Source of the DNA: a virus
Lineage: Duplodnaviria; Heunggongvirae; Uroviricota; Caudoviricetes
Virus record (IMG/VR): IMGVR_UViG_2778261689_000009
Location: 1 to 11,799 of that record
Direction: 5' to 3' (one strand)
DNA: 11,799 nucleotides
Part shown: in pieces, positions 1-11,799 of the stretch
Layout of the letters: each line of letters begins with the position of its first letter
Numbering within the stretch: the stretch's first letter is position 1
Made by a program: the position numbers and the translations under genes
Notes under the pieces: model-generated
The model's database searches: none
Told to the model about the DNA's origin: nothing
What the model saw: the letters and a program-made list of their open reading frames with translations, nothing else

Positions 1-432
1 CATTTGATCATATGACAAGATGTGTATCCACCTTAACTTAATGATTTTTACCAAAATCATTAGGGGATTCATCAGCACCAAGCCTATTCTGATAATATCC
101 TTATTGAGTTCTTTATGGATATCAACCACACTATCGAAAACTTCTTGAAACAAATGTAAGTCTACCTCTTGCTCAGAATCCATACGTTCAAAAAACAAAT
201 CACATCTCTGCAGTGAGCATTGAACTCTAAATTTATTATCTATAGAAAACAATTGGAGACGAGGAATCTCTGGTGGGGTATCCATAGGTAAAACGCCCAA
301 CATCATATTGTTTGTTAATTCAATACCTGCCTTCTTTTTAAAAGTTTGCCTAATAAAATACGACATTCCATCGAAATCGACAGTCGTTGATGAATCGTAA
401 AAAAATACCATTTGTAACTGTATGATTTTCAT
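1..432 (-). CDS. Hypothetical protein, AT-rich accessory gene, C-terminally truncated by the window edge (at least 144 aa)
   Basis: Not in the ORF track because it has no in-window stop. Reverse-complement ATG at 430-432 opens a frame that runs uninterrupted to position 1 (MKIIQLQMVFFYDSSTTVDFDGMSYF...). The region is visibly AT-rich compared with neighbouring P. It lies downstream of P, where lambda has ren. No recognisable family. Confidence 0.45.
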   Translation of the reverse strand, partial: MKIIQLQMVFFYDSSTTVDFDGMSYFIRQTFKKKAGIELTNNMMLGVLPMDTPPEIPRLQLFSIDNKFRVQCSLQRCDLFFERMDSEQEVDLHLFQEVFDSVVDIHKELNKDIIRIGLVLMNPLMILVKIIKLRWIHILSYDQM

Positions 433-584
433 CCTATATTCCAGGTTTCAGCAATTTAAATTTGGCGCATTATTCTAGCTTACAACAGCAACATTTTTGA
501 AGGGCTTTGCTAAAACTTTTATTCTCAGTGGCATTAATTTCAACCAATAGGACCTGAACAGAAAAAAACATAAAAATCAATGCA

Positions 585-1307
585 TTATTTCGAAATCTTT
601 TTATATAATGCTTTTCCCCCTTTCAGCCCAAACTTAGCTTTGATTTCTGCGATCTTCGCCAGAGCCTGTGCACGATTTAGAGGTCTACCGCCCATGACAG
701 GAAGCTGTTTTACTGGTTCAGGTATCGCCTCACCACGGTTAATTCGCGCGGTCATACAGGACAGTTCATCGGCAGCCTTGCGCCGTAATTCCGCATCAGT
801 AAGCGCATTGGCCCGCATGTTCTGGTACAGGTTGGTAACCAGCCAGTAGTGCGCGTTTGATTTCCATGGATAAGACTCTGCGTCCGGATACAGGCCACGC
901 TTCCGGCAATACTCGTAAACCATATCAACCAGCTCGCTGGCGTTTGGCAGCCCGGCGGTAACGGATGCTTCTTCCCGGCACCAGGCAACAAACTGCCCGG
1001 GTGATGGCAGGAATGGTCGATTCTGCCGACGGGCTACGCGCATTCCTGCGTTAACCTGTTCCATCGTGGTGATCCCGTTTTCCCGGAAAGCCAGAACCCA
1101 CTGGCGGCGGATTTCGTTCAGTTCGTTCTGGTCCCGGTTAGCCAGGCTCGCCGGGAAAGTTGCCAGTAACTGGCTGAACACACCATTGATGATCTGCGCT
1201 ACCTGTTGTACCTGCGGCTTTTCGTCGTACTGTTCCGGCATGTTGTTGGCGATCCGGCGCATCTGCTCACGGTCAAAGTTAACCATCTGTGCGGCGATGT
1301 TTTTCAT
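585..1307 (-). CDS. P: Replication protein P (DnaB helicase loader), lambda P-like
   Basis: 240-aa translation MKNIAAQMVNFDREQMRRIANNMPEQYDEKPQVQQ... matches lambda P over almost the whole length as I recall it; the last ~10 residues differ. Start overlaps the O stop in an ATGA (rev-comp of 1304-1307). Confidence 0.9.
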   Translation of the reverse strand: MKNIAAQMVNFDREQMRRIANNMPEQYDEKPQVQQVAQIINGVFSQLLATFPASLANRDQNELNEIRRQWVLAFRENGITTMEQVNAGMRVARRQNRPFLPSPGQFVAWCREEASVTAGLPNASELVDMVYEYCRKRGLYPDAESYPWKSNAHYWLVTNLYQNMRANALTDAELRRKAADELSCMTARINRGEAIPEPVKQLPVMGGRPLNRAQALAKIAEIKAKFGLKGGKALYKKISK

Positions 1308-2233
1308 AAATCCACCCCGTAAATCCAGTCAGTGTTTGTCAGGTCGAGTTTTGATTTTCCGGCTGTCACGCCAGCCTGTTGCTTGTTACGGTTGATTTCG
1401 AGTTGGGTCCACTTGTCGCGGAGTTTGGCCGGACTTAGCACGTTACCGGACCAGAAGTTGTCCTGGCATGCCCAGCGGAACAGTACACACATATCGCGGT
1501 GGTTACGTCCGTCACGTTCACGCATCAGGCGGATATCGTTAGCCCACCCTGCAAAATTCGGTTTTCTGGCTGATGGCGCGATGGTCTTCACCATGTCAAA
1601 CATCCACTCTGCGGCGGTCAGGTCTTCTGCTGTCCCCCACCTGCTGCCGCTCTGAATTGCAGCATCTGGTTTCTCCACAGGAAGATCGTTTTCTGGTTGG
1701 TCAGAGGATTCGCCAGAATTCTCGGACGAAAAAGGTTTTATATTGTCTTTTGTTAGTTTGTCTTTTGTGTTTACCTGATTCGGGTAAACGCCTTTACCTG
1801 ATTTGGGTAAACTTTTCTTACCTGATTCAGGTAAATTTACCTCTTTCAGGTAAACTTTATTTTTCTTACCTGATTCGGGTAATGTTGACCATTCACTGAC
1901 CACATTATTAATGCCTATATTCCGCCCGCTCTGAATAAAAATCCCACGCTTTACCAGAGCACTTTTTGCAGCAGAACACTTGTGCGGCAATATCCCGGTC
2001 AACTCGGAAAGTTGCTCGTTGCTCACCCAATCCAGTTTTTTATTAAAGCCATATGTTTTGCGCATGACAGCCAGAAAGACCAGAAGCTGGTGCTGTGTTA
2101 ATCCGGCCAGCATCACAGCTTCCAGCAACTCATTTGCAATGCGCGTATAACCATCATCGAGATCTGCCACGCGCGGCTCCTTTTGTGCCGCATCCGGCAC
2201 TGGAAAATTGAATATCTCAGCAGTGTTTGCCAT
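1304..2233 (-). CDS. O: Replication initiator protein O, lambda O-like
   Basis: Similarity to lambda O begins at MANTAEIFNF...VADLDDGY; ATG at 2233-2231 is preceded by GGGAGG (rev-comp of 2238-2243). The track ORF extends to an ATG at 2323 that overlaps the upstream gene's stop (ATGA), so a 339-aa form is possible. Iteron-encoded repeats LPESGKK/LPKSGK lie mid-protein. Confidence 0.85.
   Translation of the reverse strand: MANTAEIFNFPVPDAAQKEPRVADLDDGYTRIANELLEAVMLAGLTQHQLLVFLAVMRKTYGFNKKLDWVSNEQLSELTGILPHKCSAAKSALVKRGIFIQSGRNIGINNVVSEWSTLPESGKKNKVYLKEVNLPESGKKSLPKSGKGVYPNQVNTKDKLTKDNIKPFSSENSGESSDQPENDLPVEKPDAAIQSGSRWGTAEDLTAAEWMFDMVKTIAPSARKPNFAGWANDIRLMRERDGRNHRDMCVLFRWACQDNFWSGNVLSPAKLRDKWTQLEINRNKQQAGVTAGKSKLDLTNTDWIYGVDL
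1772..1882. repeat. Replication origin iterons: five copies of a ~16-bp palindromic TACCTGATTCGGGTAA-like repeat, flanked by an AT-rich tract at ~1735-1770
   Basis: Copies at 1772-1787, 1795-1810, 1819-1834, 1838-1853 (diverged) and 1867-1882, each of TACC...GGTA form, inside the O coding sequence as in ori-lambda. The adjacent T-rich tract tattgtcttttgttagtttgtcttttgtg fits a DNA-unwinding element. Confidence 0.75.
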
Positions 2234-2319
2234 AATTCCTCCCGCAATGAGTGCATTACGATTTGCACCTGAAAGTCGGTTCTGTTCCCGCAGACCGGCT
2301 TTCGCCATTTCTGAACCTG

Positions 2320-2865
2320 TCATATTGCCCCCAGCATGGTGGTAACCATCGCCATCAATGGACCAGCCAGATCAGGATCCACACGAAACATCGACACAAT
2401 GCCTTCACTCATCTCCTTCAGTTTCTGGTGGCGTGGTGCGTTGAGAATGACCGCCTGTTTTGCCTCGCTGAGCTCCTTTTCCATTTCAGCCAGTCGAGCC
2501 ATGAAGCTATCCTGCTCAACCAGGTGGCCGCGATATTTCAGCGGTAGTACTGCCAGAATTGCTGGAGTCAGTTCACGCACGTTATTTCGGTATTTTTCAG
2601 AATCGAATTTGTTATCGAGAAAGCGGAACAGCTTCTGGCGTGCACGACTGACATCATCAGGAAAATCGATAGTGCCGCCGCCCTGTGCTCGATACTCATT
2701 CACAATGAGTGCGGCAACAACATCCTGATTATCTGCAGCCGACCAGGCGCGGACGGCATCACGGATTTTTTCGTGGCCTGGAGCTTGTTTTGTTTGAGAA
2801 CGATTTATCACCGCAGTCGGGCTAAATCCGCTAGTCTGTTGGTATGTAAGTGGTTGCATAGTCAT
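2320..2865 (-). CDS. YdaT-like protein (Rac-prophage type) occupying the cII position
   Basis: 181-aa ORF between the Cro-like gene and O, same strand. From memory it shares short motifs with E. coli Rac YdaT (EYRAQGGG, LTPAILAVLP); unverified. Its stop overlaps an ATG at 2323 (ATGA). Confidence 0.55.
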   Translation of the reverse strand: MTMQPLTYQQTSGFSPTAVINRSQTKQAPGHEKIRDAVRAWSAADNQDVVAALIVNEYRAQGGGTIDFPDDVSRARQKLFRFLDNKFDSEKYRNNVRELTPAILAVLPLKYRGHLVEQDSFMARLAEMEKELSEAKQAVILNAPRHQKLKEMSEGIVSMFRVDPDLAGPLMAMVTTMLGAI

Positions 2866-2889
2866 TGCCTTATCAGTTAACGCCGCAGT

Positions 2890-3117
2890 TTAGGCGGCAG
2901 AATTACTCGCGTTAAACAATGGTGCGAGGTCGGGACGAATATCTGCTGGTTTAATCTTTCCACCAGTGGCTGAGACAATTTTCATTACATAGCGGGCATC
3001 AATTCCGCCACCGTGTAGCCAACGCCAAACAGTGGGTTGGGCTACACCGCATAGATCTGCCAGTCGTTTTTGACTACCTGTAATACTGATTGCGAGTTGA
3101 ATGGTTTGATTTGTCAT
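2890..3117 (-). CDS. Cro-like helix-turn-helix regulator (YdaS/Cro family)
   Basis: Small HTH protein (MTNQTIQLAISITGSQKRLADLCGVAQPTVWRWLHGG...) divergent from the CI-like repressor. The track uses a TTG at 3123; the ATG at 3117-3115 with an upstream AGGA is preferred. Confidence 0.75.
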   Translation of the reverse strand: MTNQTIQLAISITGSQKRLADLCGVAQPTVWRWLHGGGIDARYVMKIVSATGGKIKPADIRPDLAPLFNASNSAA

Positions 3118-3123
3118 TATCAA

Positions 3124-3227
3124 TTCCTATTGGTATTGCAATGAACAAATAATAGCAATGCGTATTAACCATAGCAATAGCAAAACGTGTTTTGACCATC
3201 GATACGCAAGCGTATAAATTAAAACTT
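3124..3227. promoter_or_regulatory. oR-like immunity control region with divergent promoters: pR-like (minus; -35 TTGCTA rev-comp of 3172-3177, 17-bp spacer, -10 TATTAT rev-comp of 3149-3154) and pRM-like (plus; -35 TTGACC 3192-3197, -10 ATAAAT 3214-3219)
   Basis: Hexamers and spacers read directly from the sequence. Repeated ATAGCAAT motifs (3152-3159, 3171-3178), palindromic ATTGCAAT (3135-3142) and near-palindrome CAATGCGTATTA (3156-3167) are candidate operators; the same motifs recur at 4926-5000. Confidence 0.5.
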
Positions 3228-3920
3228 ATGAAAAAAGAAACTCTTGCTGATCGCTTAAACCTAGCGATGGAACAATCTGGAATGTCTCAAGGCGCTCTTG
3301 CAAAGGCGTCTGGTGTAGCTCAACCCACAATCTGGAGACTGACAAGCGGCAATGCACGCGGATCTACAAGAATTGTCGAAATCGCTAATGCACTTGGGGT
3401 TCGCACTGAATGGCTTTCCTCAGGCATAGGCCCTATGAGGGATAATGGCGTTCAGCCAGGAAAACCGGCGACCTGCTCTTCCAAATACTTCAAGATTGAC
3501 GTTCTTGATATGGAAGTAAGTGCAGGGCCAGGCGTCATTAACCGTGAGTTCGTTGAAGTTTTGCGATCGGTTGAGTACTCCCATGATGATGCGCGTCACA
3601 TGTTTGATGGCCGCAAAGCAGAAAACATCCGCATCATTAACGTGCGTGGCGACAGCATGTCAGGAACGATCGAACCAGGTGACCTGCTGTTCGTCGATAT
3701 CAGCGTCAAATCGTTCGACGGCGATGGGATTTATGCGTTCCTCTACGACGAAACCGCTCATGTAAAACGTCTGCAAATGATGAAGGATAAGCTGCTGGTT
3801 ATCTCTGATAACAAGAGCTACTCACCGTGGGACCCGATCGAGAAAGACGAGATGAACCGAGTGTTCATCTTCGGGAAAGTCATCGGGAGCATGCCGCAGA
3901 CGTACAGGAAGCATGGATAA
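3228..3920 (+). CDS. CI-like prophage repressor: N-terminal HTH plus C-terminal LexA/S24 autopeptidase domain
   Basis: HTH segment MSQGALAKASGVAQPTIWRL; candidate Ala-Gly cleavage site in EVSAGPGV; S24 catalytic motifs VRGDSMSGTIEPGDLLFVD and HVKRL. Start taken as ATG 3228 (the track's 3192 is a TTG), which lies ~8 nt after the putative -10. Confidence 0.9.
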   Translation: MKKETLADRLNLAMEQSGMSQGALAKASGVAQPTIWRLTSGNARGSTRIVEIANALGVRTEWLSSGIGPMRDNGVQPGKPATCSSKYFKIDVLDMEVSAGPGVINREFVEVLRSVEYSHDDARHMFDGRKAENIRIINVRGDSMSGTIEPGDLLFVDISVKSFDGDGIYAFLYDETAHVKRLQMMKDKLLVISDNKSYSPWDPIEKDEMNRVFIFGKVIGSMPQTYRKHG

Positions 3921-3995
3921 AAATCTTGCTATTTATATTCATGAATACCTGCCCCCTGATTAACTCCACGCATCACTTGATATAAGGCACCAAAA

Positions 3996-4394
3996 ATGAG
4001 TAATGATGACAAATCTGTAAGTGATGAAGTATCTGATTTTCATAATAAAGTGAAAAATATTACAACCGCTCAATTTTCTGCATATTTAAAGCATGTTGGG
4101 GCAAATCATAACTGCTTATCTTGCGGTAAGGCTGAACTTATAGCAGTGCAAGACTGGCATTGGGATAAATTCAACAGCAAGGAAGGGAAAACAGATCTTA
4201 ATAATATTGAAAAATATACTGTTTTAAGGCTTTACAAGGTTGATGCTCCACATAGTAATGAGCAATGGAATATGACAAAAGAAAACCTAATGGATTATGA
4301 GTTTAGAGTGATATGCAAACATTGCGGATTCGTTACAAGTTATTTGGCATGGCTTGTTTTCTACTGGCTAAAGAATAACGAAGTTGACCAATAA
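3996..4394 (+). CDS. Hypothetical protein with two CxxCG knuckles (possible zinc ribbon); first gene of the immunity-region cassette
   Basis: 132-aa ORF with Cys40/Cys43 (CLSCG) and Cys107/Cys110 (CKHCG), an acidic N-terminus and an aromatic-rich C-terminus (YLAWLVFYWL). Clearly AT-rich relative to the flanking repressor and Red genes. Weak AAGG upstream. No recognisable family. Confidence 0.6.
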   Translation: MSNDDKSVSDEVSDFHNKVKNITTAQFSAYLKHVGANHNCLSCGKAELIAVQDWHWDKFNSKEGKTDLNNIEKYTVLRLYKVDAPHSNEQWNMTKENLMDYEFRVICKHCGFVTSYLAWLVFYWLKNNEVDQ

Positions 4395-4414
4395 TGACAT
4401 CCGGGCCAGAATAA

Positions 4415-4807
4415 ATGAATCCTTTTGATAATATTGCTCCTCTTTTCCCTGAGGGGGATGATAGAAATAACCATAAAAACGGTGGTAGTGATGGTGGGGG
4501 GAATGGCATGCTCGAGGTCAGAGTTGCAAAACTTGAAGCCGACGTTGAAAACATCAAGATAAACTTAGCGGAAACTCGCGCGGATGTGAGAGAGCTGACA
4601 AAAATTACCTCTTCTATAAAAACTGATGTTTCTACGATACTTCAAAAACTTGTAGATATTGACGAAAAGTTATCTCATAAAGCAAGTAAGGATTTTGTCG
4701 AAGTAAAAACAGGTAATTTAAAGGCTTGGATGCTCGGAATTCTTCTCTTATCCGTTGCAATGCCAGTCATAACTTTGCTCGTAAATTTATACATGAAAAA
4801 AACATAA
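4415..4807 (+). CDS. Hypothetical coiled-coil protein with a single C-terminal transmembrane helix (tail-anchored; XhlA-like architecture)
   Basis: Gly-rich N-terminus (GGSDGGGNG), heptad-like central region (LEVRVAKLEADVENIKINLAETRADVRELTKI...) and hydrophobic C-terminus AWMLGILLLSVAMPVITLLVNLYMKKT. An internal ATG at 4508 preceded by a GGGGGGAA run is an alternative start (99 aa). Confidence 0.6.
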   Translation: MNPFDNIAPLFPEGDDRNNHKNGGSDGGGNGMLEVRVAKLEADVENIKINLAETRADVRELTKITSSIKTDVSTILQKLVDIDEKLSHKASKDFVEVKTGNLKAWMLGILLLSVAMPVITLLVNLYMKKT

Positions 4808-4832
4808 CCCGGCCACCGCGCCGGGTTTTCTT
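4808..4832 (+). terminator. Rho-independent terminator closing the cassette
   Basis: GC stem CCCGGC (4808-4813) / GCCGGG (4820-4825) with a 6-nt loop, then TTTTCTT, immediately after the stop at 4805-4807. An A-run at 4793-4799 could allow bidirectional function. Confidence 0.65.
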
Positions 4833-4925
4833 CCCCCCTTCCCCAACACACTCAACGTCTAAAAAACAACCACAATCTCACTTCAGCTATCGCTACGCGA
4901 TGCAAACCACAAAATAAATTCTTTT

Positions 4926-5003
4926 TGCTATCAATGATTTAATAACCAATCGCATCAAGCAATAACAATACGTATTGATATAGCCAATAGCAATAGCTAT
5001 TAT
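4926..5003 (+). promoter_or_regulatory. oL/pL-like region: candidate pL (-35 TTGATA 4975-4980, 17-bp spacer, -10 TATTAT 4998-5003) overlapped by operator-like repeats
   Basis: Perfect 12-bp palindrome CAATACGTATTG (4966-4977), ATAGCAAT (4987-4994) and TTGCTAT (4926-4932) match the motifs at 3135-3178. The promoter faces the gam-bet-exo-xis-int genes. Confidence 0.5.
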
Positions 5004-5288
5004 CATTCCATCGCAACGACACAGCGATGGGGCAACCACCAGTTCACCCGCTTCACCGTTGCGATGACCGCTTAGATCCGCAGCTTGAATTTCAGCAGGT
5101 TCCGGGGAGTGCGAGGGGTGAAACGGACGTGTGAACGTCGGTGTGACCATCTGGAATCAACTCAACACTTCATACCTCAGTCGCTTCACCGAGGCGGCTT
5201 AGTTATGACTAACGGCGGCCATCCACCGCCAGATTAAGCGCAGAAGTCTTCATATGTTCAGCAGCCCAGCTTACGGGCAGGAGTTTTT

Positions 5289-5495
5289 ATGGTTCATCAA
5301 CATTACGGCACTCAGACCGTCAATCGCGGTGCCGTCCGGCCAGGAATGCTGGTTAAGCACAAAGATGGCACCTGGACAGCATCAGCTAATTTACGCGGTC
5401 GGCTTTATCTACACCGCGGTATCGAGCGCACCTACACCCGTGATTTGCTCGTAGAAGTTTTTCTCGATGGGCGCGGCAACGGCCTGAATCACTAA
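5289..5495 (+). CDS. Hypothetical small protein in the kil position, immediately upstream of gam
   Basis: 68-aa ORF with a good RBS (AGGAG, 5 nt before the ATG at 5289). I do not recognise it as lambda Kil or N. The overlapping 5254 frame lacks an RBS. Confidence 0.5.
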   Translation: MVHQHYGTQTVNRGAVRPGMLVKHKDGTWTASANLRGRLYLHRGIERTYTRDLLVEVFLDGRGNGLNH

Positions 5496-5570
5496 TCCCC
5501 TTTCCTGTTTTCCTAATCAGCCTGGCATTTCGCTGGCGATATTTTCACAGCCATTTTCAGGAGTTCAGCC

Positions 5571-5867
5571 ATGAACGCTTATTACATTCAGGATCGTCTT
5601 GAGGCTCAGAGCTGGGCGCGTCACTACCAGCAGATCGCCCGTGAAGAGAAAGAGGCAGAACTGGCAGACGACATGGAAAAAGGCCTGCCCCAGCACCTAT
5701 TTGAATCGCTATGCATCGATCATTTGCAACGCCACGGGGCCAGCAAAAAAGCCATTACCCGTGCGTTCGATGACGATGTTGAGTTTCAGGAGCGCATGGC
5801 AGAACACATCAGGTACATGGTTGAAACCATTGCTCACCACCAGGTTGATATTGATTCAGAGGTATAA
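5571..5867 (+). CDS. gam: Gam, host RecBCD nuclease inhibitor (lambda Red gamma, short form)
   Basis: Translation [60 protein letters not shown]...[10 protein letters not shown] is nearly identical to lambda GamS from memory; AGGAG RBS upstream. Confidence 0.92.
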
Positions 5868-5872
5868 AACGG

Positions 5873-6658
5873 ATGAGTACAGCACTCGCAACGCTGGCTG
5901 GGAAGCTGGCTGAACGTGTCGGCATGGATTCTGTCGACCCACAGGAACTGATCACCACTCTTCGCCAGACGGCATTTAAAGGTGATGCCAGCGATGCGCA
6001 GTTCATCGCATTGTTGATCGTCGCCAACCAGTACGGCCTTAATCCGTGGACGAAAGAAATTTACGCCTTCCCTGATAAGCAGAACGGCATCGTTCCGGTG
6101 GTGGGCGTTGATGGCTGGTCCCGCATCATCAATGAAAACCAGCAGTTTGATGGCATGGACTTTGAGCAGGACAATGAATCCTGTACATGCCGGATTTACC
6201 GCAAGGACCGTAATCATCCGATCTGCGTTACCGAGTGGATGGATGAATGCCGCCGCGAACCATTCAAAACCCGCGAAGGCAGAGAAATCACCGGACCGTG
6301 GCAGTCGCATCCCAAACGGATGTTACGGCATAAAGCCATGATTCAGTGTGCCCGTCTGGCCTTCGGATTTGCGGGTATCTATGACAAGGATGAAGCCGAG
6401 CGCATTGTCGAAAATACCGCATACACTGCAGAACGTCAGCCGGAACGCGACATCACTCCGGTTAACGATGAAACCATGCAGGAGATTAACACTCTGCTGA
6501 TCGCCCTGGATAAAACATGGGATGACGACTTATTGCCGCTCTGTTCCCAGATATTTCGCCGCGACATTCGCGCATCGTCAGAACTGACACAGGCCGAAGC
6601 AGTGAAAGCTCTTGGATTCCTGAAACAGAAAGCCACTGAGCAGAAGGTGGTAGCATGA
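5873..6658 (+). CDS. bet: Bet, single-strand annealing protein (lambda Red beta)
   Basis: 261-aa translation [66 protein letters not shown]... matches lambda Beta essentially end to end; its stop overlaps the exo ATG (ATGA at 6655-6658). Confidence 0.95.
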
Positions 6659-7335
6659 CACCGGACATTATCCTGCAGCGTACCGGGATCGACGTGAGAG
6701 CTGTCGAACAGGGGGATGATGCATGGCACAAATTACGGCTCGGCGTCATCACTGCTTCAGAAGTTCACAACGTGATAGCAAAGCCCCGCTCAGGAAAGAA
6801 GTGGCCTGACATGAAAATGTCCTACTTCCACACCCTGCTGGCTGAGGTTTGCACCGGTGTGGCTCCGGAAGTTAACGCTAAAGCGCTGGCATGGGGAAAA
6901 CAGTACGAGAACGACGCCAGAACCCTGTTTGAGTTCACTTCCGGCGTAAATGTTATTGAATCCCCGATCATCTATCGCGACGAAAGTATGCGCACCGCCT
7001 GCTCTCCCGATGGTTTATGCAGTGACGGCAATGGCCTTGAGCTGAAATGCCCGTTTACCTCCCGGGATTTCATGAAGTTCCGGCTCGGTGGTTTCGAGGC
7101 CATAAAGTCGGCTTACATGGCCCAGGTGCAGTACAGCATGTGGGTGACGCGAAAAGATGCCTGGTACTTTGCCAACTATGACCCGCGCATGAAGCGTGAA
7201 GGCCTGCATTATGTCGTGATTGAGCGGAATGAAAAGTACATGGCGAGTTTTGACGAGATGGTGCCGGAGTTCATCGAAAAAATGGACGAGGCACTGGCTG
7301 AAATTGGTTTTGTATTTGGGGAGCAATGGCGATGA
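6655..7335 (+). CDS. exo: Exo, 5'-3' dsDNA exonuclease (lambda Red alpha)
   Basis: 226-aa translation [65 protein letters not shown]...GFVFGEQWR matches lambda exonuclease with a few substitutions. Confidence 0.95.
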
Positions 7336-7490
7336 AGCATCCTCACGATAATATCCGGGTAGGCACGATCACTTTCGTCTACTCCGTTACAAAGCGAGGC
7401 TGGATATTTCCCGGCCTTTCTGTTATCCGAAATCCCCTGAAAGCACAGCGGCTGGCTGAGGAGATAAATAATAAACGGGGGGCTGTATGA
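7332..7490 (+). CDS. Hypothetical small protein (52 aa), translationally coupled between exo and the methyltransferase
   Basis: ATG 7332 overlaps the exo stop (ATGA) and its own stop overlaps the methyltransferase ATG (ATGA at 7487-7490); [52 protein letters not shown]. Below the ORF-track cutoff; coding status rests only on the coupling geometry. Confidence 0.3.
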
Positions 7491-8044
7491 CTGATTTCAC
7501 CGGAAGCAATACTCCTGCCGAACATCGCGACAGCTGGCGCACACCACCAGAGATTTTTGCTGCGCTTAATGCAGAGTTCGTTTTTCAACTTGATGCTGCC
7601 GCCAGCGAAAAAAACCGACTATGTCGGCTTTTTATCTCACAGGAGCAGAACACATTAACCACTTCATGGCCTGAAGCAATGGGATATGCCTCTGGTTATG
7701 TCTGGTTGAATCCACCATACAGCAATATTTCCCCTTTTGTGAAAAAGGCAGCCACTGAAAACAAATTCAGTAGTGTGGGATGTGTAATGTTATTGCCTGC
7801 TGACACATCTGTCGGATGGTTTCATGAAGCGATACAAACCGCCAGTGAGGTCAGATTCATCACGGCAGGACGACTGGCATTTATTAACCCGCTCACTGAG
7901 AAACCCGTCAGTGGAAATAATAAAGGCTCGATGCTCATTATCTGGCACCCATACCCCCGTACACACTGCCACTTTACGACCGTTGATCGTGGAGAGTTGA
8001 TGGCGTTCGGCTCAAGGATTCTTGCCCGTCGGGAGGCTGCATGA
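7487..8044 (+). CDS. Phage orphan DNA N6-adenine methyltransferase (Dam-like)
   Basis: 185-aa ORF with the amino-methyltransferase catalytic tetrapeptide NPPY (YVWLNPPYSNISPF). No adjacent restriction endonuclease candidate. Size and position resemble orphan methyltransferases in other enterobacterial prophages. Confidence 0.8.
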   Translation: MTDFTGSNTPAEHRDSWRTPPEIFAALNAEFVFQLDAAASEKNRLCRLFISQEQNTLTTSWPEAMGYASGYVWLNPPYSNISPFVKKAATENKFSSVGCVMLLPADTSVGWFHEAIQTASEVRFITAGRLAFINPLTEKPVSGNNKGSMLIIWHPYPRTHCHFTTVDRGELMAFGSRILARREAA

Positions 8045-8124
8045 CAACCACGGAATGCATTTTTCTGGCAGCGGGCTTCATATTCTGTGTGCTTATGCTT
8101 GCCGACATGGGACTTGTTCAATGA
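8041..8124 (+). CDS. Hypothetical 27-aa hydrophobic peptide (MTTTECIFLAAGFIFCVLMLADMGLVQ), translationally coupled on both sides
   Basis: ATG 8041 overlaps the methyltransferase stop (ATGA 8041-8044) and its stop overlaps the next ATG (ATGA 8121-8124). The sequence would form a single transmembrane helix. Could also be a purely regulatory coupling ORF. Confidence 0.3.
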   Translation: MTTTECIFLAAGFIFCVLMLADMGLVQ

Positions 8125-8336
8125 CACCTCAGCAGGAAAACGCCCTTCGCAGCATTGCCCGTCAGGCTAATTCTGAAATCAAAAAAGCCAGACAGCAGTT
8201 TCCGGATAAAAACGTCGATGACATTTGCCGTAGCGTACTGAAGAAGCACCGCGAAACGGTAACGCTGATGGGATTCACACCGACTCATTTAAGCCTGGCG
8301 ATCGGCATGTTAAACGGCGTCTTTAAGGAGCGATGA
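8121..8336 (+). CDS. Hypothetical protein (71 aa)
   Basis: MTPQQENALRSIARQANSEIKKARQQFPDKNVDDICRSVLKKHRETVTLMGFTPTHLSLAIGMLNGVFKER. Start chosen at the coupled ATG 8121 rather than the longer 8022 track ORF, which overlaps the methyltransferase. Confidence 0.5.
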   Translation: MTPQQENALRSIARQANSEIKKARQQFPDKNVDDICRSVLKKHRETVTLMGFTPTHLSLAIGMLNGVFKER

Positions 8337-8358
8337 ACATGAAAAGCAAAATCATCAG

Positions 8359-8385
8359 GGAGCTACAGGCTCCTTTTTTATTATT
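8359..8385 (+). terminator. Candidate weak intrinsic terminator or attenuator (tL-like)
   Basis: GGAGC (8359-8363) / GCTCC (8369-8373) stem with a 5-nt loop, followed by TTTTTTATTATT. The stem is short, so this is uncertain. Confidence 0.3.
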
Positions 8386-8434
8386 CGCATTCACCCTCAA
8401 GCGTATTAACCAACAATTCAGGGATTAATGGAAG

Positions 8435-8653
8435 ATGGCAGACATCATTGATTCAGCATCAGAAATCGAAGAATTACAGCGCAATACAGCAATAAAAATG
8501 CGTCGTCTGAACCACCAGGTTATATCTGCCACTCATTGTTGTGAGTGTGGCGATCCCATAGATGAACGAAGACGCCTGGCCGTTCAGGGTTGTCGGACTT
8601 GTGCAAGTTGCCAGGAGGAGATCGAACTTAAGAACAAACAATGGGGATTGTGA
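8435..8653 (+). CDS. TraR/DksA-family C4 zinc-finger protein
   Basis: 72 aa with C-x2-C-x14-C-x2-C (CECGDPIDERRRLAVQGCRTC), the size and motif spacing typical of phage and plasmid TraR-like RNA-polymerase secondary-channel binders. Confidence 0.75.
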   Translation: MADIIDSASEIEELQRNTAIKMRRLNHQVISATHCCECGDPIDERRRLAVQGCRTCASCQEEIELKNKQWGL

Positions 8654-8700
8654 TGGCCTCAAAGCAGCAAATTTCAACATCGTCCAACTGAGGTGTAAAA

Positions 8701-8979
8701 ATGTTCAGAATCATTTTTCCTAACACCTGGTACGTCGACCACCACGGCACTCCCTGCAAAATCCTGCGTTCTACCCACAACAAAGTTCACTACATCCGAA
8801 AAGGCAGAACATGTATCGCCAGCATGTTCCGCTTTAATCATGACTTTGAACCTGTGAATAAAGCTGATGCAGATCGGATAGCAGAAGAGATCGAAACGGC
8901 AGAACACATTAAGAAGTTACGTGACATGCGTTCAAAAAGCAGAGGTAACCATGGAATCATACAGCCTCACACTCGATGA
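8701..8979 (+). CDS. Hypothetical protein (92 aa) upstream of and overlapping xis
   Basis: Good RBS (GAGGTG ~7 nt before ATG 8701). The 3' end overlaps the xis start by 29 nt in another frame. No recognisable family. Confidence 0.5.
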   Translation: MFRIIFPNTWYVDHHGTPCKILRSTHNKVHYIRKGRTCIASMFRFNHDFEPVNKADADRIAEEIETAEHIKKLRDMRSKSRGNHGIIQPHTR

Positions 8980-9301
8980 GGCCTGTCAGTTTCTCAAGAT
9001 ATCCAGACCTACCGCTACCAACTGGATACGAACAGGCCGCCTACAGGCAACACGCAAAGACCCCACAAAACTAAAATCTCCTTACCTCACAACACGACAA
9101 GCCTGCATTGCGGCGCTTCAGTCTCCGCTGCATACTGTCCAGGTGAGCGCGGGTGATGGCATAACAGAGGAAAGAAAATGTCACTCTTCCGCAGAAGTGA
9201 AATATGGTACGCCAGTTTCACATTGCCGAACGGTAAAAGATTTAAACAGTCTCTTGGAACAAAGGACAAAAGGCAGGCGACAGAGCTCCATGACAAGCTA
9301 A
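8951..9301 (+). CDS. xis: Excisionase, P22 Xis-like
   Basis: [36 protein letters not shown]... resembles P22 Xis from memory; RBS AGAGGT before ATG 8951 (the track's 8921 start adds 10 residues with no RBS). Overlaps the int start. Confidence 0.8.
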
Positions 9302-10341
9302 AGGCTGAAGCATGGCGGGTCAGCAAACTTGGTGAAATACCTGATATGACGTTTGAGGAAGCGTGTGTCAGGTGGCTCGAAGAGAAAGCACATAAGAAAT
9401 CACTGGACGATGACAAAAGCCGGATCGGATTCTGGCTTCAACATTTCGCAGGGATGCAACTAAGAGACATTACTGAATCAAAAATTTATTCAGCAATGCA
9501 GAAAATGACGAACCGGCGTCATGAGGAAAACTGGAAACTCAGGGCAGAAGCATGCAGAAAAAAAGGGAAACCTGTTCCAGAATACACGCCAAAACCAGCG
9601 TCCGTTGCAACGAAGGCTACGCATCTTTCATTTATAAAGGCCCTACTAAGAGCCGCAGAGCGTGAATGGAAAATGCTGGATAAGGCACCAATTATTAAAG
9701 TGCCTCAACCAAAGAATAAACGGATCCGCTGGCTGGAGCCCCATGAAGCACAAAGGCTGATTGATGAATGTCCGGAGCCATTAAAGTCTGTTGTTGAATT
9801 TGCACTGGCAACAGGCTTAAGACGCTCGAACATCATCAACCTTGAATGGCAACAAATAGATATGCAGCGCCGGGTGGCATGGATAAACCCGGAAGAGAGT
9901 AAATCAAACCGCGCAATCGGCGTTGCGCTGAATGATACTGCATGTCGCGTTTTGAAAAAACAAATCGGGAATCATCACCGTTGGGTATTTGTGTACAAGG
10001 AAAGCTGTACCAAACCAGACGGAACGAAAGCGCCAACAGTAAGGAAGATGCGGTATGACGCAAACACAGCCTGGAAAGCGGCGCTGAGACGAGCAGGTAT
10101 TGATGATTTCAGATTTCACGACTTGAGACACACCTGGGCAAGTTGGCTGGTTCAAGCCGGAGTCCCGTTGTCAGTGTTACAGGAAATGGGAGGCTGGGAG
10201 TCTATCGAAATGGTTCGTCGATATGCTCACCTCGCACCTAATCACCTTACCGAACATGCACGGCAAATAGACTCGATCCTGAACCCATCGGTCCCAAATT
10301 TGTCCCAGTCAAAAAATAAGGAAGGTACTAATGATGTGTAA
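9178..10341 (+). CDS. int: Tyrosine integrase, P22 Int-like (thrW-specific)
   Basis: 387 aa, [53 protein letters not shown]..., very close to P22 Int as I recall it; tyrosine-recombinase motifs HDLRHT and VRRYAHL present; ends 15 bp from the tRNA. Confidence 0.95.
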
Positions 10342-10355
10342 CTTATTGATTTTAA

Positions 10356-10431
10356 TGGTGCCGATAATAGGAGTCGAACCTACGACCTTCGCATTACGAA
10401 TGCGCTGCTCTACCAACTGAGCTATATCGGC
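10356..10431 (-). tRNA. thrW: tRNA-Thr (anticodon CGU), thrW, including 3' CCA; phage attachment target
   Basis: Reverse complement reads GCCGATATAGCTCAGTTGGTAGAGCAGCGCATTCGTAATGCGAAGGTCGTAGGTTCGACTCCTATTATCGGCACCA, a 76-nt cloverleaf-compatible tRNA with anticodon loop TTCGTAA. The 3' end faces the integrase. Confidence 0.92.
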
Positions 10432-10545
10432 CCTGAAAGGACATGTTCACGAACGTGAATCACGGTGGACAAGGTTAAAACTAACCGGGCGATGCGTCAA
10501 TGGCCTTGTGAATCAAATGGCTACTTTTGCATCACCCGGTTTTAT

Positions 10546-11799
10546 TTACGCACGAATGGTGTAATCACCAATGCCGATCCACTTGTAAGTGGTCAGTGCT
10601 TCCAGCCCCATTGGGCCACGCGCGTGGAGTTTTTGTGTGCTTACCGCCACTTCCGCACCCAGACCAAACTGGCCGCCGTCGGTAAAACGCGTAGAGGCGT
10701 TAACGTAAACAGCGGACGAATCCACTTCGTTAACAAAACGCTGGGCGTTGCGCATATCGCGGGTCAGGATCGCATCGGAGTGTTGTGTGCCGTGTTCACG
10801 AATATGGGCGATGGCATCGTCAAGATCGCTGACGATTTTGACGTTCAAATCTAATGACAGAAACTCATCGTCATACTCTTCGGCTTTAACAGCAACCACC
10901 TTCGCAGGGCCTGCCTGCAACTGCGCCAGTGCAGCTGCATCTGCGTGTAATGTCACGCCGCTTTCCGCCATTTGTTTGCTTAATGCGGGCAGGAAGCTAT
11001 CGGCGATGTTTTTATTCACCAGCAACGTTTCAACCGTATTACATGTGCTCGGACGCTGAGTTTTCGCGTTGACGATCACTTTTAATGCTTCAGCGATCTC
11101 TACACTTTCATCAACGTAAATATGGCATACGCCTATACCACCTGTGATCACCGGGATTGTCGACTGTTCACGGCACAGTTTATGCAAACCAGCGCCACCA
11201 CGCGGGATCAGCATGTCGATGTATTTATCCATACGCAGCATTTCACTGACCAGCGCACGGTCAGGATTATCAATCGCCTGCACGGCACCCGCCGGTAAGC
11301 CGCAGGATTTCAGGGCGTCCTGAATCACCGCCACCGTTGCAGCGTTAGTGCGACACGTTTCTTTGCCACCGCGCAGGATCACCGCATTACCGGTTTTCAG
11401 GCACAGCGAAGCGACATCAACCGTCACGTTCGGGCGCGCTTCATAAATCACGCCAATAACCCCCAGCGGTACGCGACGACGCTCAAGACGCAGGCCGCTG
11501 TCCAGTACGCCGCCATCGATTACCTGCCCCACCGGATCGGCGAGGTTGCACACCTGACGTACATCGTCGGCAATGCCTTTCAGCCGTGCGGGCGTCAGTG
11601 CCAGACGGTCAAGCATCGCTTCGCTAAGGCCATTGGCTCGCGCGTCAGCAACATCCTGGGCGTTAGCGTTGAGGATGATTTCGCTTTGTGCTTCCAGTTC
11701 ATCGGCGATTTTTTCCAGCACGCGATTTTTTTCGCGGCTGGAGAGTTGCGCTAATTTATACGAGGCTTGCTTCGCGGCAATGCCCATTTGTTCCAGCAT
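10546..11799 (-). CDS. proA: Gamma-glutamyl phosphate reductase (host core gene)
   Basis: 417-aa translation [75 protein letters not shown]... matches enterobacterial ProA; the start codon sits exactly at the window end. Confidence 0.95.

Follow-up and report, generated by a model that had tools for sequence, protein, structure and literature searches.

A probable overlooked 27-codon gene in the ATGA-joined early-left block of a lambda-like prophage

Does a 27-codon open reading frame (ORF) enclosed between two stop/start overlaps in a lambda-like prophage encode a protein that annotation has passed over, or does it merely reflect the way in which its neighbours are joined? The DNA that raises this question, hereafter the window, is a stretch of 11,799 nucleotides (nt) (positions 1 to 11,799 of IMG/VR virus record IMGVR_UViG_2778261689_000009), which carries a lambda-like Escherichia coli prophage locus with an early-left (pL) accessory block, the "exo-xis" block. 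The ORF in question, ORF27 (MTTTECIFLAAGFIFCVLMLADMGLVQ; 8041..8124, plus strand), would specify a hydrophobic peptide of 27 amino acids (aa); it forms an 80-nt unit between two ATGACA junctions, one of them shared with the stop codon of a DNA methyltransferase gene and the other with the start codon of orf61. The reading favoured here, to which we would give a probability of about 0.65, is that the pL block is stitched together by ATGA junctions and that ORF27 is a genuine overlooked gene, which at the same time acts as a translational bridge to a 71-aa orf61.

The locus owes its interest to its context. Few genomes are as well annotated as that of lambda, and the exo-xis block, the subject of work in the Wegrzyn and Donaldson laboratories, modulates the induction of Shiga toxin (Stx) prophages in pathogenic E. 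coli and is actively studied. What would be new is a probable conserved lambda/Stx gene that has gone unrecognised by RefSeq and by the accessible exo-xis literature. Should ORF27 be real, the gene lists of lambda and of most Stx phages would lack a conserved gene found in 58% of complete E. coli genomes (3,142 of 5,426), and the ATGA junctions of mosaic phages would serve both to hand over ribosomes and to delimit modules; should it not be real, the chain of junctions is ordinary operon architecture.

ORF27 and its predicted product

What kind of variation does ORF27 tolerate? Sequences were drawn from 308 independent loci on viral and metagenome contigs, 291 of which carry an ungapped copy of ORF27, and each segregating allele was counted once against mutational opportunity, at a transition/transversion ratio of 3. 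The 291 copies comprise 40 DNA haplotypes, and 243 of them (84%) nevertheless specify an identical peptide. In the ORF27 frame, the ratio of non-synonymous to synonymous polymorphism (pN/pS) was 0.43 when all variants were included (15 synonymous and 18 non-synonymous; P=0.014), 0.28 for alleles seen at least twice (13 and 10; P=0.002) and 0.13 for alleles seen at least three times (11 and 4; P=2e-4). The other two sense frames gave ratios of 0.8-4.6, and the ORF27 frame was the best of all six at every allele threshold. Two annotated neighbours served as controls, orf61 with a pN/pS of 0.22-0.37 and orf60a with 0.45-0.70, the latter indicating weak-to-moderate constraint; purifying selection on ORF27 is as strong as that on orf61 and stronger than that on orf60a. 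An earlier note on this DNA, made from its letters only, had proposed conservation and synonymous-substitution analysis as a check on the small ORFs of the block: purifying selection is present in ORF27, orf61 and orf60a, and none is detectable in a 31-aa ORF further downstream.

Individual variants tell a similar story. The most divergent haplotype differs at 7 of 84 nt, of which five are synonymous and the remainder give A21S and D22G, and the same differences would cause six aa changes if the DNA were read in the orf61 frame. A common A-to-G change at 8121 keeps Gln27 (CAA to CAG) and also leaves orf61 with a valid start codon (ATG to GTG). Both junctions are retained in the metagenome subset (n=103), which was anchored within orf61 and thus not chosen for its junctions: all 103 loci have the 5' ATGA and 99/103 the 3' A/GTGA, and ORF27 has 27 codons in 99, 26 codons in two and is disrupted in two. 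Moreover, the 5' ATGA with ORF27 is kept behind either of two upstream genes, in 93 loci of the orf63 type and 27 of the methyltransferase type. Start, stop and reading frame are therefore conserved and accompanied by a synonymous excess in ORF27's own frame, a signal that one antisense frame partly shares (see below). Taken together, these comparisons suggest that ORF27 is probably a protein-coding gene missed by annotation.

How could such a gene have been missed in phages as well known as these? The identical 27-codon ORF occurs in lambda (complement 30925-31008), where it is ATGA-linked to the stop codon of orf63 and to an MTPQQ start of orf61, and in Stx phages. In each case the DNA was already occupied by an annotation read in the orf61 frame, namely the 61-aa "orf61" of lambda (30839-31024) and the 93-aa vb_24B_7c of phage 24B. 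The RefSeq pipeline, the Prokaryotic Genome Annotation Pipeline (PGAP), calls orf61 as 71 aa and leaves 8045-8120 empty, and so ORF27 shares the fate that the earlier note had ascribed to small hydrophobic phage ORFs, which usually go unannotated. An exact look-up of the peptide returned only five near-identical "hypothetical protein" variants and two unrelated 428-aa cluster artefacts. A literature search did not find the peptide sequence; the accessible exo-xis literature, which lists five conserved genes plus 7-aa and 31-aa ORFs derived from ribosome profiling, does not name a 27-aa ORF; and the supplements of an enterohaemorrhagic E. coli ribosome-profiling (Ribo-seq) paper and of the MetaRibo-Seq paper contained no match to ORF27. 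In a tblastn search of 50,697 phage genomes, ORF27 was found only in E. coli lambdoid and Stx phages (176 phage records), with at least 92.6% aa identity.

A search of species-representative genomes added no diversity, as almost all matches represent contamination with laboratory lambda. Contigs of ~48.4-48.5 kb, or fragments, in GTDB genomes assigned to Shewanella, Bradyrhizobium, Pseudomonas, Paenibacillus, Kitasatospora and others carry the lambda-type frameshifted orf61 at 100% identity, and look like laboratory lambda DNA contaminating the assemblies.

What would ORF27 produce? Across its six frames the window holds 108 ORFs of 20-40 aa, and none has a more hydrophobic product than ORF27 (grand average of hydropathy, GRAVY, 1.62); the best 17-residue Kyte-Doolittle stretch of the peptide (2.44) also ranks first. 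The peptide is thus hydrophobic enough for the single membrane helix that the earlier note had foreseen. The N-terminus is polar and acidic, the net charge is -2 and neither Lys nor Arg is present. The uninterrupted hydrophobic core extends over 16 residues (C6-A21), or over 20 (I7-V26) if D22 is allowed inside it, with no basic residues on its flanks, and small residues recur at the spacings C6xxxA10 and G12xxxC16. A single membrane-embedded helix would be the most likely state of the peptide.

Small hydrophobic proteins with which it may be compared include the type I toxins Hok, TisB, Ibs and DinQ and the membrane-protein modulators AcrZ, MgtS and KdpF. With these ORF27 has in common a length below 50 aa, one hydrophobic segment of helix length and a history of being overlooked by annotation pipelines. 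Unlike type I toxins, however, it lies inside an operon rather than at a stand-alone locus with an antisense RNA, and its net charge of -2 and lack of Lys and Arg, in contrast to cationic pore-forming toxins, place it nearer to accessory subunits such as KdpF. A type I toxin of the Hok/TisB/Ibs kind was rejected on this account, together with the lack of any match in Pfam, NCBIfam, PHROGs, PDB or Rfam; a match to NCBIfam MtrF, at 13.8 bits well short of the threshold of 25, is attributable to chance. The suggestion of the earlier note that the peptide is a toxin, division inhibitor or regulator amounts to speculation, given a sequence with no basic residue and no family match that is absent from related phages. 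The small-xxx-small motifs and the missing basic residues are what might lead one to speculate, instead, that the peptide forms no pores but binds to a membrane protein of the host or the phage.

Junctions, ribosome-binding sites and module boundaries

The earlier note had drawn attention to four ATGA overlaps connecting exo to an accessory block. All four are present in the sequence, at 7332-7335 (exo/orf60a), 7487-7490 (orf60a/methyltransferase), 8041-8044 (methyltransferase/ORF27) and 8121-8124 (ORF27/orf61), and the ORF coordinates and translations given there agree with the ORF listing. Three points had escaped it, namely that this is the much-studied lambda exo-xis region, that ORF27 clashes with a 93-aa model of Orf61, and that the chain extends on both sides. 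Further ATGA junctions join bet to exo (6655-6658) and orf61 to the 31-aa ORF (8333-8336), making six consecutive junctions from bet through the 31-aa ORF. When the window was shuffled 200 times, a fraction of 0.024 of the ORFs of at least 25 aa ended in an ATGA that opened another ORF of at least 25 aa; with a chance rate of only 2.4% of ORFs, the run of six is not fortuitous. Where genes overlap in bacterial and phage operons, they most often do so by the 4-nt ATGA, and the junctions seen here resemble known ATGA-coupled pairs in that both genes lie on the same strand and the TGA stop shares two bases with the following ATG. They differ from such pairs not in kind but in the length of the run and in a shared cassette at recombination boundaries, features that are notable yet fit the known mosaicism of lambdoid phages. 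By itself, the ATGA chain is ordinary operon architecture.

Do the genes of the chain depend on one another for their translation? The "strict" coupling envisaged in the earlier note is not borne out, because most genes possess a good Shine-Dalgarno sequence of their own (-7.7 to -10.3 kcal/mol) and only orf61 (-3.9 kcal/mol) looks dependent. Against a median of -2.6 kcal/mol for all ATGs of the window, the energies are -8.6 for exo, -7.7 for orf60a, -9.4 for the methyltransferase and -8.4 kcal/mol for the 31-aa ORF; the best in the chain belongs to ORF27, whose GGGAGG (8031..8036, plus strand), located 4 nt 5' of the ATG, forms a duplex of -10.3 kcal/mol. The value for ORF27 in lambda is -5.6. 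With the strongest ribosome-binding site at ORF27 and a near-absent one at orf61, ORF27 probably feeds ribosomes to orf61. Ribosomes would initiate on ORF27 from its own strong Shine-Dalgarno sequence in this prophage, and mainly through coupling to orf63 in lambda; having read 27 codons, they would terminate at the UGA at 8122-8124 and re-initiate at the orf61 AUG at 8121-8123. The ATGA junctions would in this manner pass ribosomes from gene to gene and, at the same time, mark the points at which phages exchange modules. As far as the sequence goes, we infer both translation of ORF27 and translational coupling within the chain.

The module boundaries themselves are sharp. In the alignment, homology to lambda stops exactly at the ATG of orf63, or here of the methyltransferase, and restarts exactly at the ATG of ORF27. 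The replacement gene (7487..8044, plus strand) encodes a 185-aa Dam-family phage N6-adenine DNA methyltransferase (Pfam PF05869, E=2.3e-56) and substitutes for lambda orf63 from start to start, a variant encountered in 27 of 120 viral and 13 of 103 metagenome loci. The junction cassette GGGAGGCnGCATGAC (window 8028-8046) is kept across E. coli, Enterobacter and Klebsiella phages, and the genes upstream of it differ (Dam-type methyltransferase, Dcm methylase and others), so that the cassette looks like a shared linker for module exchange.

In Enterobacter and Klebsiella phages, the same Shine-Dalgarno cassette serves the orf61 homologue directly, and alignment with these phages shows that ORF27 amounts to 80 nt inserted precisely between two ATGAC(A) junctions. 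Enterobacter phage BHUENT3 provides an example in which the same Dam-type methyltransferase is joined by ATGA straight to the orf61 homologue. Among Klebsiella-type loci, ~148 of 150 have a 4-nt overlap between the upstream stop and the start of the orf61 homologue, and the upstream genes are many and different, specifying 150-300 aa. Only in Yersinia phages was a small membrane ORF seen in the slot of ORF27; ~150 Klebsiella-type loci lack one, as do Vibrio, Erwinia and Enterobacter phages. Since distant phages do not have this exact insertion, ORF27 is an addition specific to one lineage, that of the E. coli lambda/Stx module.

The Yersinia case concerns vB_YenM_210.17 and its relatives, in which an unannotated 31-aa hydrophobic ORF (MKRKISDGAWFWIYLIGYTVAATLYIVSNAG) occupies the same slot. 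Like ORF27, it is ATGA-linked to the methyltransferase stop and has a single hydrophobic helix, and it ends 3 nt 5' of the orf61 homologue; in contrast to ORF27, it has a basic N-terminus, and the two share no sequence similarity. Its copies are identical in five phages, and its presence in the same slot may be a coincidence.

Competing accounts of the interval and the start of Orf61

Several observations weigh against accepting ORF27 as a gene. Its copies all share DNA identities of 91.7% or more and, as a consequence, the selection test is based on just 33 segregating variants, the independence of which is assumed and whose message strengthens only once rare, possibly erroneous, alleles are removed. 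One antisense frame with the same third codon positions as ORF27 has a pN/pS of 0.23-0.65. The peptide lacks basic residues that could set its orientation in a membrane, and its hydrophobic core spans only 16-20 residues; Pfam, PHROGs and PDB contained no match to it, and its homologues give no functional hint. Furthermore, ORF27 is dispensable, being absent from the Klebsiella and Enterobacter relatives and missing from 5 of 228 sampled E. coli-type loci, in which a 250-aa gene replaces the methyltransferase and ORF27 together. Finally, Donaldson (2021), summarizing lambda profiling data (Liu et al. 2013), mentions only the 7-aa and 31-aa ORFs as extra ORFs of the block; profiling reads over ORF27 would have been assigned to the overlapping "orf61" annotation.

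Could 8045-8120 then be a non-coding spacer, a T-rich accident that is never translated and in which the signs of selection stem from hitch-hiking, noise or the antisense ORF of 44 aa (7974-8108, minus strand)? We consider this quite unlikely. The small number of variants, the modest P of 0.014 for the full set and the absence of a RefSeq call would agree with it, as would the antisense frame, which shares part of the synonymous-site signal because its third positions match those of ORF27. The antisense ORF, however, crosses the module boundary, with the result that lambda and this prophage do not match over its C-terminal two-thirds and it is not conserved as a unit, and the single minus-strand promoter match in its vicinity (8047-8018) is weak, at 9/12. 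A spacer would also have to accommodate the conservation of both junctions, the A-to-G change at 8121 that respects Gln27 and the orf61 start at once, a mosaic boundary placed exactly at the ORF27 ATG behind a strong Shine-Dalgarno sequence, and a frame that is the best of six at every threshold. A known or structured RNA in place of ORF27 was likewise considered and rejected, given the absence of an Rfam family match over ORF27 and an unremarkable fold z-score of -0.46. Another idea is that ORF27 is translated only as a relay, by which orf61 receives the ribosomes that have read orf63 or the methyltransferase gene, its peptide being a functionless by-product that is quickly degraded. The feeble Shine-Dalgarno sequence of orf61 fits this idea, given that ORF27 holds the very GGGAGG that elsewhere serves orf61 homologues directly, and so do the absence of ORF27 where orf61 couples straight to the upstream gene and a peptide with no known family or basic residue. 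Yet a relay needs no conserved aa sequence, and the pN/pS of 0.13-0.43 and the identical peptide in 84% of loci run counter to it; nor is there an obvious benefit in an 80-nt insertion that merely restores an existing coupling. A pure relay is possible, if unlikely, but leaves the conservation of the aa sequence unexplained.

Very improbable, in our view, is the remaining account, according to which 8055-8120 encodes an N-terminal extension of Orf61, as in its 93-aa (Stx) and 61-aa (lambda) forms, and ORF27 is a chance ORF. This extension of 22 codons on the plus strand overlaps ORF27 out of frame. The orf61 frame is indeed open 5' of 8121, from a TTG at 8022, and the literature uses the 93-aa form, for which phage 24B and others carry an annotation; PHROG 303 also covers the extension. 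Against this, eight of nine common polymorphisms in the extension frame are non-synonymous and its pN/pS of 0.8-4.6 betrays no purifying selection. The ATG at 8055 has no Shine-Dalgarno sequence (about -2 kcal/mol). Phages of Klebsiella, Enterobacter, Yersinia, Vibrio and Erwinia have orf61 homologues at 29-47% identity, all of which match the 71-aa form from its first residue onwards and lack the extension; in other genera they begin MTP, with the stop of the upstream gene overlapping that start. PGAP, too, calls the 71-aa form. In an AlphaFold model of the 93-aa protein, the extension scores 40-52 and the core 73-91 in the predicted local distance difference test (pLDDT), and low model confidence was also the reason why Orf61 residues 1-23 had been left out previously (Donaldson 2021). 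The extensions of lambda and of the window, moreover, are split by the module boundary and hence differ 5' of 8041. Most likely, the extension is not coding in the orf61 frame, and the real Orf61 would be the 71-aa protein rather than the 93-aa or 61-aa forms of the literature.

In the favoured reading, in which ORF27 is a gene of its own, orf61 (8121..8336, plus strand; phrog_303, E=4.7e-36) thus begins at the stop codon of ORF27 and relies on a weak Shine-Dalgarno sequence; its start is GTG in 87 of the 291 sampled loci (~30%) and ATG in the others. The AlphaFold model of the 71-aa protein is a three-helix bundle (pLDDT 78.5) with no PDB match at an E below 1. Neither that model nor the PDB search supports a homeodomain label. 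The name "cell division protein ZapA", which RefSeq attaches to some orf61 copies, appears unfounded as well, as the Pfam score of 16.1 bits falls short of the 23.8 required and the PDB search, as said, gave nothing at an E below 1. What of the 61-aa protein of lambda? The A6 run at 8181-8186, common to this prophage and most relatives, is A7 in lambda, a state found in just 6 of 218 sampled loci, and lambda orf61 is consequently frameshifted; the annotated lambda "orf61" is an out-of-frame read across ORF27, followed by 21 genuine codons and then by a frameshifted tail. This explains the finding that lambda Orf61 was "truncated" and could not be folded (Donaldson 2021).

The correction bears on experiments already in print. 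If ORF27 is real, 22 residues of the 93-aa Orf61 used for modelling and over-expression are probably foreign to the protein, and the insolubility reported for over-expressed Orf61 may be due to the wrong N-terminus. In the published delta-orf61 mutants, it was the annotated "nucleotide sequence of orf61" that was replaced; this sequence takes in all or nearly all of ORF27, and the deletions therefore removed ORF27 too, which, if ORF27 is real, confounds the reported phenotypes. A more ambitious proposal, which we put forward tentatively, is that ORF27 is a functional sixth member of the exo-xis group, an early pL micro-protein of the inner membrane that acts on a membrane protein of host or phage and has a share in the phenotypes of "orf61" deletions. 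Such a share would follow from the co-deletion of ORF27, especially in lambda, in which orf61 is frameshifted, and the pro-lytic, host-survival and adsorption phenotypes would then be those partly due to ORF27.

The E. coli-type variant with the 250-aa gene, for which no Pfam family is found, is a third form of the module; besides the methyltransferase/orf63 and ORF27, it also replaces the first six codons of orf61, producing the N-terminus MTIEHNN, and supplies orf61 with a GAGG Shine-Dalgarno sequence of its own. It surfaced among moderately diverged orf61 proteins in the databases, most of which are frameshift artefacts or recombinants.

The surrounding block

The window is 100% identical to a prophage in E. 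coli isolate F1005, where it is inserted next to tRNA-Thr and proA, and its shared parts have ~98% DNA identity to lambda and Stx phages. The genes run in the order gam, bet, exo, orf60a (with domain of unknown function DUF1317), the methyltransferase, ORF27, orf61, the 31-aa ORF and orf73, followed, according to the RefSeq annotation, by DUF4222, a xis-like helix-turn-helix gene, int and tRNA-Thr; lambda has the same order. Is this, then, a lambda-type exo-xis block? Its position is the same, with exo on one side and xis/int on the other in the leftward early operon, and it contains orf60a, orf61 and orf73, all 95-100% identical to their lambda counterparts; it also has the same predicted terminator between orf61 and orf73. 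The difference lies in orf63 (DUF1382), which lambda has and for which the Dam-family methyltransferase stands here.

The first gene of the chain, bet (261 aa; 5873..6658, plus strand), is the RefSeq "phage recombination protein Bet", and exo (226 aa; 6655..7335, plus strand), identified from its ORF and by RefSeq, starts in the bet stop and stops in the start of orf60a. The orf60a homologue (7332..7490, plus strand; Pfam PF07026, E=2.8e-34), also recognised by alignment with lambda, has 52 aa here and 60 aa in lambda because its tail falls within the swapped module. A second in-frame ATG at 7326 would extend it to 54 aa; RefSeq places the start at 7332, for which the spacing of a GGGGAG Shine-Dalgarno sequence is better than for 7326. 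Past the chain, and without an ATGA link, comes the orf73 homologue (8435..8653, plus strand), a TraR/DksA zinc-finger protein (Pfam PF01258, zf-dskA_traR, E=1.2e-8; RefSeq).

Between orf61 and orf73, finally, lie a small ORF and a terminator. ORF31 (8333..8428, plus strand), ATGA-linked to orf61, can be read from either of two ATGs, at 8333 (31 aa) or at 8339 (29 aa); the first of these is A/G polymorphic, and a good AAGGAG Shine-Dalgarno sequence precedes the second. Purifying selection is not detectable in it (pN/pS 0.5-0.7, not significant), and its coding status is uncertain, even if it is probably the 31-aa ORF reported to be translated in lambda. The intrinsic terminator t2, predicted between orf61 and orf73 (Bloch et al. 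2014; PMC4195576), corresponds here to a hairpin at 8357-8375 with a T-run to 8385 (8357..8385, plus strand). Ribosomes translating ORF31 would cover the t2 hairpin, so that its translation could modulate termination.

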